39,720 nt of DNA from a phage. Shown piece after piece: positions 1-39,720 of the stretch. The stretch lies in the sequence record PZ618370.1, one strand, 5' to 3'. The notes beneath the pieces were generated by a model that was not told the DNA's origin, ran no database searches, and saw only the letters and a program-made list of their open reading frames with translations. Every line of letters begins with the position of its first letter. The stretch's first letter is position 1. Made by a program: the position numbers and the translations under genes.

Positions 1-211
1 ATCGGATGACGACCAGTGAACCAATCAGTAGGTAGACCATAGGTTAGCCTGAATGGTGTTACCTAAAGTCCTTGACTACAGTAGCTAAGGTCAGTAGAGT
101 GAGTCTTTATCCACGTACTGACCTTAGCTACTGTAGTCAAGGACTTTAGGTAACACCATTCAGGCTAACCTATGGTCTACCTACTGATTGGTTCACTGGT
201 CGTCATCCGAT
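1..211. repeat. terminal foldback palindrome: arms 1-96 and 116-211 are exact reverse complements, 19-nt spacer 97-115
   Basis: Reverse complement of 1-96 written out by hand equals 116-211 base for base. Hairpin-end read-through or assembly artefact are both possible. Confidence 0.9.
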
Positions 212-242
212 GGTCTCAGACCTACGGTCCTTGACCTACAGT
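116..242 (+). repeat. left copy of direct terminal repeat (at least 127 bp)
   Basis: Identical to 39594-39720 at the window end; T7-like genomes carry direct terminal repeats. Confidence 0.8.
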
Positions 243-484
243 AGCTGAGACCTTAAGGTAGGGACGATGAGTTTTGGACCAAAAGTTTGAGACCACATCT
301 CACAGTTCAAGAACCTCAAGTCTCCCCATAGGCCTACTTCAGTCCAGACCAAAGGCCATACCCCAGTCTATCATAAGGTTGGACAGATGGTCAATACTTC
401 AGGTCAACGATAGGTCATGACGATAGGTGGTGGTGGAGACGATAGGTAGGGACTATGGGTCTGTCTCTGAGTCTCTATCTGTAT

Positions 485-613
485 AACCATAAGTCACTAA
501 CCATAGGTCCTACAACCATAGGTCCTACAACCATAGGTCCTACAACCATAGGTCCTACAACCTACAGTCTCAACCATAAGACACCAACACCTACAGTCAT
601 AGACCTACAGTTA
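485..613 (+). repeat. tandem array of 15-bp unit AACCATAGGTCCTAC (4 perfect copies 499-558, degenerate copies on both sides)
   Basis: Direct reading of sequence; sits in the non-coding left leader, analogous to the repeated motifs in the T7 left end. Confidence 0.85.
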
Positions 614-722
614 ATAGACACACAGCTATAGACTTAAGGACAAAGACATGATAGTCAAAGACTATATCCTCTTACACCATGAGGCCGACGATAGCTTAAT
701 CAATATTATTTCAAATTACCTA

Positions 723-752
723 TTGACTATAGGTCTAGACTATGGCCTAATA
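723..752 (+). promoter_or_regulatory. host sigma70-type early promoter (T7 A1-like)
   Basis: -35 TTGACT at 723-728, about 17-nt spacer, -10-like CCTAAT/CTAATA around 746-752; flanking sequence resembles the T7 A1 promoter context. Confidence 0.45.
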
Positions 753-3164: not shown

Positions 3165-3490
3165 TGAACAAGGCATACGGGATTAATCTGGTACACTCTA
3201 TGGACGCAGACCTTAATCTGCTTTCAGCACTGGCTACGGGCTACCGTCACGGGACCTCAAGTCACACCATTCGTCAACAGCAGGAGCGCGACCGGGTGCT
3301 ACAAGTAAGACTCCGGGCTGAGGGCCATAAGTCCGAGCTGATGTGTCTGGCGTATGGTGGACGACCAATCACCGACGATGGTAAACTTCTGGTCTCAGGC
3401 TGGAAGGCGATAGACCAACGGTCAACCATCAAGCACACGACTCGCGGTGACTTCAGTCATCTTCACGCTAACCCTCTGATATGCAAGTAA
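3164..3490 (+). CDS. hypothetical early protein (108 aa)
   Basis: ORF with SD GGAG; no recognisable motif; no T7 counterpart between 0.7 and gene 1. Confidence 0.5.
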   Translation: MNKAYGINLVHSMDADLNLLSALATGYRHGTSSHTIRQQQERDRVLQVRLRAEGHKSELMCLAYGGRPITDDGKLLVSGWKAIDQRSTIKHTTRGDFSHLHANPLICK

Positions 3491-3587: not shown

Positions 3588-6269
3588 ATGAGCGTCATCT
3601 CTATTGACAAACACGACTTCTCTGACGTGTCGAATGCCATTGAGCCATTTAACCTGCTGGCTGACCACTACGGGCAAGACCTTGCAGTCAAGCAGCTTCA
3701 GCTTGAGCATGAGGCATACACTGAAGGCGAGCGACGTTTCATCAAGAACCTTGAGCGCCAGACTGAGCGCGGGGAACTGGCAGACAATCAGGTCGCCAAG
3801 CCTTTGATGCAGACTCTGGTCCCTAAGATTGCGCAAGCCGTCAAGGAGTGGCACGAAGGAAAAGACGGGAAGCTGTCAACCTCTCGCCCAAGCGTAGCGT
3901 TTACCATGCTGAGCACTGATGAGAAGGCTGTCAAAGACCGCTCTCTGCTCATCTCCTGTGGGTCTGCTGCGGTTATCATACTGAAGGTCATCCTCTCCAA
4001 GCTGGTCAAGCCTGAAGGGATACCGATTACACCGATGGCCTCAGCGATAGGCCGCACACTTGAAGATGAAATCCGCTTCGGTCGCATTCGTGACAAGGAG
4101 CGGGAGCACTTCAAGAAGGCGATAGCTGAGAACCTGAACAAGCGAGCCGGGGCATCCTACAAGAAAGCCTACATGCAAGCGGTTGAAACCTCCATGCTGG
4201 AGCAGGGTCAACTGGAAGATGCGTGGGGAAATTGGAGTCCTACCGAGGCGGTACACGTTGGCATCAAGATGCTTGAGATTGTCATCCAGTCTACACAACT
4301 TGTCGAGCTTAAGCGTTATGGTGCTGGCAATGCATCGGCTGACGTTGAGATGGTCCACCTGTCAGACTTCTGGGTAAAGAAGATGGCACAACGTGGATTC
4401 AGCCTCGCGGGTATCGCGCCAGTATATCAACCTTGCGTAGTACCACCTAAGCCGTGGACTGGTGTCGTGGGTGGTGGGTATTGGGCCAAAGGTCGCAGAC
4501 CGTTGCCGCTGATTCGATTAGGGTCTAAGTCTGCGGTGGCACGTTACGAAGACGTGTACATGCCTGAAGTCTACGACGCTGTGAACATCATTCAGAATAC
4601 ACCTTGGAAAGTGAACAAGAAGGTTCTGGACGTGGTGAACATGGTCGAGAAGCTGAACAACACACCTATTAAAGACATCCCGCAAATGGAACCACTGAAG
4701 CCTGAGGACTATGCAGGTGAGACTGAAGAGGAACTCAAGGCATGGAAGAAAGCTGCTGCTGGTATCTATCGTCGCGAGAAGGCCCGAAAGTCACGCAGAT
4801 TGTCACTGAGCTTTATCGTTAACCAAGCGAACAAGTTTTCTCAGTTTAAGGCCATCTGGTTTCCGTACAACATGGATTGGCGAGGTCGCGTCTACGCTGT
4901 ACCGATGTTCAACCCTCAGGGTAACGACATGCAAAAAGGCCTCCTGACTCTTGCGGTCGGCAAGCCTATTGGTTCCGATGGCTTCAAATGGCTGAAGGTA
5001 CACGGTGCAAACTGTGCGGGTGTAGATAAAGTAACCTTCGAGGAGCGCATTAAGTGGGTGGAAGACAACCATGACAACATCATGGCTACCGCTAAAGCAC
5101 CGATGGATAGCATTGAGTGGTGGGGCAAGTTAGGCTCCCCGTTCTGCTTCCTTGCGTTCTGCTTCGAGTATGCTGGCGTAATGCATCACGGATTGTCTTA
5201 CTCATGCTCGCTGCCGATAGCGTTCGATGGGTCATGCTCTGGGATTCAGCACTTCAGCGCGATGCTTCGTGACCACATCGGTGGACATGCAGTAAACCTG
5301 ACGCCTTCCGGTAAGGTCCAAGACATCTACCGCATCGTGTCTGACCGCATTGAGGAGGAACTTAAAGTCCTGCTGGTTAACGGTACGGACAACGAGATGG
5401 TGACTCAAGAGGACAAGAAAACAGGTGAGATTACCGAGCGTCTTAAGCTGGGGACACGAGAGCTTGCGCGCCAGTGGCTTACCTATGGTATGTCACGAGA
5501 GGTCACTAAGCGTTCGGTCATGACTCTGGCATACGGGTCGAAAGAGTATGGATTCGCAGACCAAGTGTACGAGGATATCGTGATGCCAGCGATTGACTCA
5601 GGGTCTGGCGCTATGTTCACCGAGCCAAGCCAAGCATCTCGCTTCATGGCTAAGATGATTTGGGAAGCTGTTAGTGTGACCGTAGTTGCTGCGGTTGATG
5701 CGATGAAGTGGCTTCAAGGTGCTGCCAAGCTGCTGGCTGCTGAAGTGAGTGACAAGAACACAGGCGAAATCCTGAAGCCGTGCCTTCCTGTACATTGGGT
5801 CACACCCGATGGTTTCCCGGTCTGGCAGGAATACCGAAAGAAAGATACCACTCGTCTGAACCTGATGTTCTTAGGGTCATTCAACCTTCAGCCTACCGTC
5901 AACAGAGGCACGAAGAAAGAGTTGGACAAGCACAAGCAGGAGTCAGGCATTAGCCCGAACTTCGTCCACTCACAAGATGGTAGCCACCTCCGCAAGACTG
6001 TAGTCCACACGCACCGCAAGTATGGCGTGATGTCCTTCGCAGTGATTCACGATAGCTTCGGGACCATCCCGGCTGACGCTGAGTATCTGTTCCGTGGCGT
6101 CCGTGAGACGATGGTAGAGACCTACCGCGACAACGATGTGCTGCTTGACTTCTACGAGCAGTTTGAATACCAGCTTCACGAGAGCCAGCGCGACAAGTTG
6201 CCTGAGCTTCCGAAGAAAGGTAAACTGAATATCGAAGACATCTTGTCTTCAGACTTTGCATTTGCTTAA
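3588..6269 (+). CDS. 1: single-subunit DNA-directed RNA polymerase (T7 gp1 family, 893 aa)
   Basis: Full-length collinear similarity to T7 RNAP as recalled (SREVTKRSVMTLAYGSKE, HWVTPDGFPVWQEY, NFVHSQDGSHLRKTVV, IHDSFGTIPADA, C-terminal FAFA). Confidence 0.97.
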   Translation: MSVISIDKHDFSDVSNAIEPFNLLADHYGQDLAVKQLQLEHEAYTEGERRFIKNLERQTERGELADNQVAKPLMQTLVPKIAQAVKEWHEGKDGKLSTSRPSVAFTMLSTDEKAVKDRSLLISCGSAAVIILKVILSKLVKPEGIPITPMASAIGRTLEDEIRFGRIRDKEREHFKKAIAENLNKRAGASYKKAYMQAVETSMLEQGQLEDAWGNWSPTEAVHVGIKMLEIVIQSTQLVELKRYGAGNASADVEMVHLSDFWVKKMAQRGFSLAGIAPVYQPCVVPPKPWTGVVGGGYWAKGRRPLPLIRLGSKSAVARYEDVYMPEVYDAVNIIQNTPWKVNKKVLDVVNMVEKLNNTPIKDIPQMEPLKPEDYAGETEEELKAWKKAAAGIYRREKARKSRRLSLSFIVNQANKFSQFKAIWFPYNMDWRGRVYAVPMFNPQGNDMQKGLLTLAVGKPIGSDGFKWLKVHGANCAGVDKVTFEERIKWVEDNHDNIMATAKAPMDSIEWWGKLGSPFCFLAFCFEYAGVMHHGLSYSCSLPIAFDGSCSGIQHFSAMLRDHIGGHAVNLTPSGKVQDIYRIVSDRIEEELKVLLVNGTDNEMVTQEDKKTGEITERLKLGTRELARQWLTYGMSREVTKRSVMTLAYGSKEYGFADQVYEDIVMPAIDSGSGAMFTEPSQASRFMAKMIWEAVSVTVVAAVDAMKWLQGAAKLLAAEVSDKNTGEILKPCLPVHWVTPDGFPVWQEYRKKDTTRLNLMFLGSFNLQPTVNRGTKKELDKHKQESGISPNFVHSQDGSHLRKTVVHTHRKYGVMSFAVIHDSFGTIPADAEYLFRGVRETMVETYRDNDVLLDFYEQFEYQLHESQRDKLPELPKKGKLNIEDILSSDFAFA

Positions 6270-39529: not shown

Positions 39530-39563
39530 TGCAATCATGGTAACGATTCATGAGCGGAAGACC

Positions 39564-39604
39564 TAAGGTCAGTACGTGGATAAAGACTCACTCTACTGAC
39601 CTTA
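39564..39604 (+). repeat. palindromic hairpin element at the inner boundary of the right terminal repeat (11-bp arms TAAGGTCAGTA / TACTGACCTTA, 19-nt spacer)
   Basis: Same arms as 86-126, but the spacer is the reverse complement of the left-end spacer. Confidence 0.8.
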
Positions 39605-39720
39605 GCTACTGTAGTCAAGGACTTTAGGTAACACCATTCAGGCTAACCTATGGTCTACCTACTGATTGGTTCACTGGTCGTCATCCGATGGTCTCAGACC
39701 TACGGTCCTTGACCTACAGT
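39594..39720 (+). repeat. right copy of direct terminal repeat
   Basis: Identical to 116-242; runs to the last base of the window. Confidence 0.8.

Follow-up and report, generated by a model that had tools for sequence, protein, structure and literature searches.

A T7-type short-repeat array behind the terminal repeat of a Kayfunavirus genome and its possible part in concatemer-junction maturation

The left leader of the phage DNA in sequence record PZ618370.1 carries a run of tandem 15-bp repeats, and this locus raised two questions: what kind of element the array is and whether it has a role for the phage. The analysis covered the whole stretch of 39,720 nucleotides, which is called the window here, and positions are counted from its first letter. 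The reading that we favored, with a probability of about one half, is a joint one: the array would be a homologue of the short repeats that follow the terminal repeat (TR) of T7 and, in addition, a putative cis element of concatemer-junction maturation.

The original prediction had described four perfect head-to-tail copies with degenerate copies on both sides, and re-reading of the sequence together with TRF confirmed every one of the units (Table 1). In the window, TRF reported a tract with a period of 15, 4.3 copies, 100% matches, and a score of 128, and an independent repeat search returned the same four in-register copies. Against a null of 200 simulated windows of 39.7 kb (first-order Markov model), the best TRF score had a mean of 40 and a maximum of 70. 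The degenerate core ACCWWMRGTC pointed the same way. It occurred 26 times in the window versus 1.41 times expected, none of 100 dinucleotide shuffles reached 26, and 10 of the 26 matches were within positions 61 to 598. Nine plus-strand cores were found at positions 486 to 612, with successive spacings of 14, 15, 15, 15, 15, 13, 16, and 14 bp, and the core variants of the array in this genome were ACCTACAGTC and ACCATAGGTC. The repeat array is real and far beyond chance. As for cores dispersed through the interior of the genome, the 12 copies exceeded the 1.4 expected from dinucleotide shuffling, but Markov models of order 3 to 5 gave 3 to 5; this excess was too weak, and the dispersed cores were dropped as a meaningful signal.

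Table 1. Features of the terminal-repeat region and of the right end of the window
Feature	Position	Strand	Basis or remark
Unique region left of TR (right end of mature genome)	116-297	+	Counterpart of T7 right-hand short repeats
TR, single collapsed copy (TCTCACAGTT...GAGTCTC)	298-475	+	Homology to K1F and EPr2
TATCTGTA, conserved ATCTGT motif right after TR	476-483	+	Position of T7 class II pause signal; last base differs
First degenerate unit AACCATAAGTCACT	485-498	+	Sequence read
Four perfect head-to-tail AACCATAGGTCCTAC copies	499-558	+	Sequence read, TRF, repeat search
Perfect tract including first 4 nt of next unit	499-562	+	
Degenerate unit AACCTACAGTCTC	559-571	+	
Degenerate unit AACCATAAGACACC, then AAC	572-585	+	Kayfunavirus-conserved
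Degenerate unit ACCTACAGTCAT	589-600	+	Kayfunavirus-conserved
Degenerate unit AGACCTACAGTTA	601-613	+	Kayfunavirus-conserved
Non-coding tail of array region, ATAGACACACAGCTATAGACTTAAGG...AGACATG.TAGTCAAAGAC	614-660	+	Conserved, 16-relative alignment
First host-type early promoter candidate (TTGACT, 17 nt, CCTAAT)	723-751	+	By-eye alignment to T7 promoter A1
Exact duplicate of 116-242, 127-nt assembly overlap	39594-39720	+	Sequence comparison

The first 1100 bases of the window matched 388 phage records, most of them Kayfunavirus (K1F-like, T7 subfamily Studiervirinae), and the matches began only at base 116. An 893-amino-acid single-subunit RNA polymerase (3588-6269) was 97 to 98% identical to that of Kayfunavirus contigs. 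Judged by these matches, the source genome was that of a Kayfunavirus, a T7-like member of the Studiervirinae that has a direct terminal repeat. The record of K1F, which starts with TCTCACAGTTCAAG, carries an exact repeat of 178 bp at its two ends, and in phage EPr2 the homologous 179 bp are annotated as a direct terminal repeat (DTR). By homology, the corresponding segment of the window was assigned as the true TR, and its start sequence occurred once in the window. Because the TR homologue was present once and the two ends of the window shared 127 nt, the window is a circularly permuted assembly with a collapsed TR, in which the shared 127 nt are evidently an assembly overlap left of the true TR and not a terminal repeat. 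One unit is 39,478 bp long, which would give a mature genome of about 39,656 bp; the array helps to locate these true genome ends in the permuted assembly. The original prediction had also stated that the core recurs inside the terminal repeat. The repeat that it referred to was evidently the 127-nt overlap, and those copies lie in the unique DNA left of the TR. What stands of the statement is that the true TR holds diverged variants, and only these (ACCTCAAGTC, ACGATAGGTC and its G/A forms, ACTATGGGTC, and CCATAGGCC).

The array follows the TR closely. The TR ends in GAGTCTC at position 475, next come a T and ATCTGT (477-482), and three bases on, at 485, the array begins, which puts its start 10 bp past the TR and 2 bp past TATCTGTA. 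The candidate promoter listed in Table 1 was missed by the consensus scan, whose next candidate was at 864-893, and no phage-type promoter (CACTATAGG-type) or phiOL-type origin was found by the promoter scan of positions 100 to 1100; a phage promoter of the right end is located at about 39179. Since host-type promoter candidates begin at about 723 and 864 and the first gene starts at 1113, the array lies in a promoter-free, non-coding leader. A constant spacer between TR and promoter was considered and rejected, as the distance from ATCTGT to TTGACT was about 240 bp here and in K1F and about 360 bp in PE3-1.

The DNA to the left of the TR also held core-like copies, one of them on the minus strand (142-151) and the others at 168-177, 220-229, 234-243, 250-259, and 278-287. 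In replicating DNA, the order at the junction is a conserved hairpin after gene 19.5, the left array (116-297), the TR, TATCTGTA, and the right array (485-613 plus the tail). The motifs of the junction were of the ACC(T/A)(A/T)(A/C)(A/G)GTC type, mainly in one orientation, and 13 to 16 bp apart. Over 12 Kayfunavirus junctions, strict cores numbered 63 on the plus strand and 6 on the minus strand within 200 nt to the right of the TR, 34 plus and 14 minus within 200 nt to its left, and 4 plus and 3 minus inside it; the background level was 0.084 per 200 nt and strand. With a relaxed core pattern, the TR contained 5 to 10 plus-strand copies versus 1.2 expected. A companion array left of the TR and degenerate copies within the TR were therefore both present. 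Because the arrays bracket the two cut sites of the TR, any role would seem to belong to the concatemer junction as a whole and not only to the left end that enters first.

This layout bears directly on the possibility that the array is an element of DNA entry or of the virion, which would control the initial, transcription-independent entry of DNA or anchor the last-packaged end in the portal or core channel. The left end of T7 DNA enters the cell first, and the array is located 190 to 320 bp from this leading end. In addition, the strong strand skew of the array, with a GC skew of -0.52 and an AT skew of +0.33 at positions 500-599, might influence a strand-tracking motor. Arrays in general had a G-poor top strand, and the mean GC skew over 62 related arrays was -0.23 versus +0.07 +/- 0.11 genome-wide. 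However, the same motif is equally placed on the left side of the TR, where the genome has its trailing end, and this points to the junction and not to the entering end. The initial entry step is also not known to depend on sequence. An entry or virion element was considered very unlikely.

The motif that separates the TR from the array took the place of CTATCTGTT, which is found at the right TR edge of T7, and its position was invariant in 66 loci. T7 RNA polymerase has a class II pause/termination signal with the consensus HATCTGTT, and this signal, as ATCTGTT, sits at the T7 concatemer junction (bioRxiv 10.1101/2021.01.11.426313). Class II signals of T7 reportedly tolerate no base change, and the polymerase halts 6 to 8 nt downstream of the motif (bioRxiv 10.1101/2021.01.11.426313). 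The window differed from T7 in that TATCTGTA, the immediate left neighbor of the array described here, departs from the strict 8-mer in one base, the last. All Kayfunavirus loci had ATCTGTA or ATCTGTC, and T7-, T3-, and Przondovirus-like loci had ATCTGTT. In the PE3-1 record, the equivalent 8-mer, CTATCTGT, is annotated as "concatemeric junction." It appears that TATCTGTA corresponds to the class II pause signal of the T7 concatemer junction, and it is a putative pause site for the Kayfunavirus polymerase.

The short distance between this motif and the array, set beside the halting of T7 polymerase 6 to 8 nt downstream of its signal, could also mean that the array is a transcription element. 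It would then provide extra pauses or a roadblock that keeps late read-through out of the early region, or host-polymerase promoter-like sites such as the leftward A0. In T7, the leftward promoter A0 has its annotation at nt 224, within the array, and a weak leftward sigma-70-like match at 573-545 in the window was made of repeat units. In addition, host polymerase reportedly uses the T7 junction sequence as a promoter in some contexts (bioRxiv 10.64898/2026.02.12.705533), which counts for the same explanation. On the other hand, the match at 573-545 scored 9/12, and promoter-like sites numbered 3 versus 1.6 expected in shuffles. The A0 promoter of T3 sits within the TR, outside the array, the cores are unlike the class II signal, and a transcription element leaves the array left of the TR unexplained. 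Thus, it seemed quite unlikely that the array acts in transcription.

The question of what kind of element the array is was answered by the comparison with T7. The order of elements in T7 is the same, with GTGTCCCT directly followed by ATCTGTTACAG and then by CCTAAAG repeats, and T3 is arranged likewise. Dunn and Studier are said to have named the short repeats that flank the T7 terminal repetition SRL and SRR in 1983, and no papers that tested the T7 short-repeat arrays were found in the open literature. The core ACCTACAGTC was identical to the T7 core ACCTAAAGTC at 9 of 10 bases, ACCATAGGTC was identical to it at 7 of 10, and intermediate forms, such as ACCTAAAGTC itself, were present in Kayfunavirus loci. 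The same place after the TR and a nearly identical core indicate that the array is a positional and sequence homologue of the T7 post-TR repeats.

The likeness extended further. In both phages, the repeats come right after the TR end and ATCTGT and ahead of the early promoters; they are imperfect direct repeats with a period of 12 to 16 bp and one orientation, and related copies are found left of the TR and, in degenerate form, inside it. Local perfect duplications also occur in the T7 array, e.g., AGACCAGACCTAAAG. The differences were that the cores of this phage are ACCTACAGTC and ACCATAGGTC and those of T7 are CCTAAAG, that this phage has no phage promoter (phiOL) after the array, that ATCTGTA replaces the ATCTGTT of T7, and that this genome contains a perfect block of four 15-bp copies. 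All of the structural features of the T7 type that we looked for (a genome with a TR, the position, imperfect direct repeats, kinship of the core, and a companion array) were found, and the array is very probably a T7-type post-TR short-repeat array. The original prediction had drawn the parallel with T7 as an analogy, and the shared site after the TR and ATCTGT, together with a core one base from that of T7, makes the relationship stronger than that.

A survey of the subfamily placed the array in a wider context. The TR end was followed by ATCTGT in 66 of the 93 Studiervirinae loci that were fetched, and these 66 anchor-bearing loci, with the T3 locus counted in, yielded 62 distinct post-TR sequences. 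By inspection, repeats with a period of 12 to 16 bp were present in nearly all 62, and TRF made a call in 51. The motif family was CCTAAAG in T7- and T3-like phages, ACCTGAGGTA in a group with 58% polymerase identity, and CTCCTAATGTC in locus L031; a 23-bp unit was repeated 2.9 times in L049, and a 21-bp unit was repeated 11.4 times in L044. The cores of the subfamily shared the pattern ACCTnn(A/G)G, and the cores ACCTACAGTC, ACCTAAAGTC, and ACCTGAGGTA were kept across genera whose RNA polymerases were only 58 to 63% identical. Pure neutral turnover is ruled out by this comparison because the genera are too diverged for likeness in non-coding DNA to persist through descent alone.

Within Kayfunavirus, we compared 16 distinct arrays that lie between the same two anchors. 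Every one of the 16 contained cores of the form ACC(A/T)(T/A)(A/C)(A/G)GTC. Array length ranged from 96 to 275 bp, and the copy number across relatives, which the original prediction had put forward as a check, was about 4 to 16 core-like units (4 to 15 by a stricter core pattern at the same loci). Core-to-core spacing was 13 to 16 bp in 96 of 125 intervals. In the alignment, the TR-distal units ACCATAAGACACCAAC, ACCTACAGTCATAG, and ACCTACAGTTAATAGACA were orthologous across genomes, and their cores were near-invariant and their spacers variable. The array was lost in none of the 23 Kayfunavirus arrays examined, two of which had few cores under the strict pattern.

The same comparison disposed of a small protein-coding gene at this locus. 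An ATG-initiated ORF of 58 codons (455-631) runs across the array, so that the repeat would encode a TIGPT pentapeptide, and "gp0.1" or "hypothetical protein" is annotated over the homologous stretch in some relatives. However, the ATG is ATT in K1F and EPr2, no reading frame survives the unit lengths of 13, 14, and 16 bp seen in relatives, there was no PHROG match, and the ORF start would fall inside the TR. Public annotations of the stretch were also inconsistent ("alpha,alpha-trehalase" and "N4-like RNA polymerase"). The 58-amino-acid ORF is effectively refuted as a gene, and the ORFs called across the array region in public records are spurious. Two further candidates were rejected. An RNA family gave only sub-threshold microRNA-like matches, and these arose from the artificial fold-back of 96 bp at 1-211. 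In the case of primase sites, those of T7 are GGGTC, TGGTC, and GTGTC, the cores give AGGTC or CAGTC, and the T7 units are often without GTC.

The units that had been amplified differed from one lineage to another. The amplified unit was ACCATAGGTCCTACA, present four times, in this window; ACCTACAGTCCTACA, as 7 copies of 15 bp, in ZG49; ACCATAGGTCTCAACA, present five to six times (6.2 copies of 16 bp by TRF), in PE3-1; and ACCTACAGTCTAACCA, as 4.6 copies of 16 bp, in GA2A. The units ACCTACAGTCTAACT, ACCTACAGTCTCACTA, ACCTCAAGTCATC, and ACCTACAGTCACCG, as well as a 26-bp double unit, were amplified at other loci. In total, at least nine different units were independently expanded in lineages of the T7 subfamily, and 10 of 15 blocks had their start no more than about 30 nt from the TR end.

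The expanded unit of the window was single-copy in the relatives L002, L003, and L029. The exact two-copy junction of AACCATAGGTCCTAC had no match in viral or metagenome collections, and a single-unit probe found only two relatives, both already known and with one copy each. The phage collection contained no close isolate, i.e., none with more than about 93% identity over the region. Because the perfect four-copy block is private to this genome and relatives have one copy, it is quite probably the product of a recent slippage expansion, and replication slippage or unequal exchange between neighboring units was the likely cause. According to the original prediction, an array that was absent or scrambled in close relatives would be a neutral slippage product. 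This description fits the perfect block, which was absent in all relatives and in the viral and metagenome collections, but not the core-bearing array, which was present in all Kayfunavirus relatives examined.

The array as a whole could still be a neutral, slippage-prone spacer, that is, non-coding DNA that buffers the early promoters from the genome end and is kept similar by concerted evolution as units are constantly gained and lost. The variation described above fits such a spacer: length and copy number varied about four-fold (96 to 275 bp), different lineages expanded different units, and the perfect block of the window was without counterpart in the collections. No coding or RNA-family signal was found either. 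A neutral spacer does not readily fit the retention of the core between genera with 58 to 63% identical RNA polymerases, or the old, non-tandem distal units that hold their cores while their spacers drift. It also does not readily fit the absence of loss among the 23 Kayfunavirus arrays or the presence of the same motif, in the same orientation, on the other side of the TR. A neutral spacer thus seemed unlikely. The sequence comparisons indicate instead that the array itself is conserved, with a core under constraint and with copy number and spacers free, and that it is not neutral junk.

If the core is constrained and the arrays flank the TR, a role at the concatemer junction is the reading that we preferred. 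We tentatively propose, with somewhat less than even confidence in this part, that the array is a putative cis element of concatemer-junction processing and packaging. Replicating genome units would be joined through one TR, with the arrays on both sides flanking the cut sites, and the two arrays that bracket the TR would serve as cis elements of junction maturation. They might offer a multi-site, oriented platform for the end-processing machinery beside the two cut sites and aid its assembly or stopping. The machinery would consist of the phage RNA polymerase, pausing at ATCTGT, and the terminase proteins gp18 and gp19. Several cores would be needed and their exact number would not, and a function that works through several cores with no fixed count would allow the copy number to drift.

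Terminase recognition arrays of other phages include the cosB R sites and cosQ of lambda and the pacL/pacR boxes of SPP1. Like these and like pacB of T3 and T7, the array consists of short repeated motifs in non-coding DNA by packaging cleavage sites. Unlike them, it has more copies, in variable number, and it is only a putative member of this group. The comparison also drew on the organization of Pac, which consists of PacB, recognized by gp18, and PacC, cut by gp19 (PMC9860248). Packaging is mutually specific between T3 and T7, and the determinants are within 5% of the genome termini (PMC3276506). A pacB- or cosB-like element would differ in sequence between mutually specific phages, and the post-TR arrays of T3 and T7 both carry CCTAAAG/CTTAAAG. 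Because T3 and T7 share the motif despite their specific packaging, the array is unlikely to be a terminase specificity site. Deletions in a T7 plasmid-transduction system, described by Chung and Hinkle in 1990, reportedly placed the essential cis sequences in the TR and to its left, and the right-hand array would then be at most an efficiency element. Also against a role in maturation were the ATCTGTA of Kayfunavirus versus the strict ATCTGTT and the about four-fold range in copy number, which has no known phenotype.

Two extensions of the maturation reading were considered. In one, copy number would serve as a dial by which junction processing or end protection is tuned, and lineages would have been repeatedly selected for more cores near the pause and cut site. 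Such a dial would explain the nine or more independent expansions and their clustering near the TR end, and we regarded it as doubtful to improbable. In a related reading, each unit, in which CAGTCTC directly precedes AACCTACAGT, would be a pseudo-terminus that mimics the right-end cut (after GAGTCTC) and the left-end cut (before TCTCACAGT), and the units might act in terminase scanning or as decoys.

An array at this place is to be expected at the end of a T7-like genome, has long been known as a feature, and carries little weight alone. The survey of 62 sequences, with a repeat array behind the TR and ATCTGT in nearly all of them, was a modest contribution. The only point that seemed mildly new was the recurrence of independent expansions with starts that cluster near the TR end, at a distance of up to about 30 nt. 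The constraint on the core and the presence of arrays on both sides of the TR sharpen a question that dates back to the publication of the T7 sequence.

The start of the contig showed a separate peculiarity. Positions 1-127 were the exact reverse complement of 39563-39689, so that the contig opens with a fold-back, and its structure was as expected of hairpin-primed synthesis from the bottom-strand 3' end at 39563. The fold-back could be either a library chimera or a captured intermediate. Its turn was a conserved hairpin with a 12-bp stem directly after gene 19.5, a position at which T7 also has a hairpin, one reportedly proposed as a processing intermediate. In 19 loci, the hairpin arms were conserved, and the loop took one of three alternative forms, each of which extended the stem.

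The short-repeat array that follows the terminal repeat (TR) contained units that looked like the genome ends. Specifically, the array unit and its spacer (CAGTCTC/AACCTACAGT, at 559 to 571 and at unit boundaries) resembled the right-end sequence, GAGTCTC, followed by that of the left end, TCTCACAGT. The array repeats might be pseudo-termini. Far bigger perfect arrays were found at the post-TR position in other T7-subfamily genomes (the table gives examples), and 10 of the 15 perfect post-TR blocks in genomes of this subfamily started no more than about 30 nt from the end of the TR.

The degenerate core of the array units, ACCWWMRGTC, was also found in the genome interior, at 3414, 7164, 8924, 13087, 14213, 20683, 21421, 24416, 28736, 33969, 37100, and 38345. 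These 12 copies represented a weak excess over expectation, which was about 1.3 copies based on base and dinucleotide composition and 3 to 5 copies based on Markov models of order 3 to 5. The 12 interior cores in the window showed no obvious link to promoters.

A perfect palindrome, TTTTGG-A-CCAAAA, was located at 272 to 284, which is 14 to 26 bp to the left of the TR start. The palindrome was part of a block (GATGAGTTTTGGACCAAAAGTTTGAGACCACA/TCTCACAG) that was identical in K1F, EPr2, PE3-1, and SHAK9454, and it is a candidate for part of the left-end cut signal. Within the TR, the sequence GGTGGTGGTGG at 424 to 436 included a stretch that agreed with Chi of E. coli (GCTGGTGG) at 7 of 8 positions; this Chi-like sequence was not conserved in K1F.

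Further to the left of the TR was a hairpin whose arms were unchanged in 19 related loci. Its loop occurred as three alternative sequences, and every one of them added inner base pairs (GTG/CAC or TAGC/GCTA). The position of the hairpin agreed with that of the T7 'M-hairpin'. We also considered whether the hairpin was an intrinsic terminator, and this reading was ruled out because the hairpin had no T-run.

Coordinates of the hairpin, of the TR copies in two public records, and of perfect post-TR arrays in related loci
Feature	Genome or locus	Coordinates	Description
Hairpin CTAAGGTCAGTA-(19 nt)-TACTGACCTTAG	Window	39563-39605, copy at 85-127	Directly past gene 19.5, ~210 bp left of TR
TR	SHAK9454 (OR594184)	249-620	Two tandem copies
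TR	EPr2 (OM256482)	1-679	Copies at 1-179 and 501-679, right-end sequence between
Perfect post-TR array	L044	~190-440	21-bp unit, 11.4 copies
Perfect post-TR array	L049		23-bp unit, 2.9 copies
Perfect post-TR array	PE3-1	729-810	16-bp unit, 5-6 copies
Perfect post-TR array	GA2A		16-bp unit, 4.6 copies

The TR was present in the window as a single, internal, collapsed copy at 298 to 475, and we infer a mature genome of about 39,656 bp that starts at 298. The two contig ends had a 127-nt exact overlap in common (39594 to 39720 matched 116 to 242), as is typical when a de Bruijn assembler run at k=127 meets a circular or concatemeric graph. In addition, window positions 1 to 127 were the exact reverse complement of 39563 to 39689, and the contig started with a perfect 96-nt inverted repeat that had arms at 1 to 96 and 116 to 211 and a 19-nt loop between them. 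Matches to relatives began at base 116, and none were found further left. Such a fold-back structure would be the expected product of hairpin-primed extension from a bottom-strand 3' end at 39563. The fold-back was either a chimera that arose in the library or during assembly, or an intermediate of replication or processing that ended in a hairpin and was captured.

The junction between genome units appears to be misassembled or permuted in the public records of SHAK9454 and EPr2. Furthermore, proteins were annotated across the non-coding junction in several records; these included an 'alpha,alpha-trehalase', an 'N4-like RNA polymerase', and hypothetical proteins.

The first gene (1113 to 1565) matched PHROG 2226 ('SAM-dependent methyltransferase', E 1e-46) and probably belongs to the T3-type anti-restriction genes, whose products degrade SAM, whereas K1F and EPr2 carry an Ocr-like gene 0.3 in its place. 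The first gene's ribosome-binding site was directly preceded by a 4-bp tandem repeat, ACTA x 4.2 (ACTAACTAACTAACTAA, 1084 to 1100), which yielded TAA stops in all three frames.
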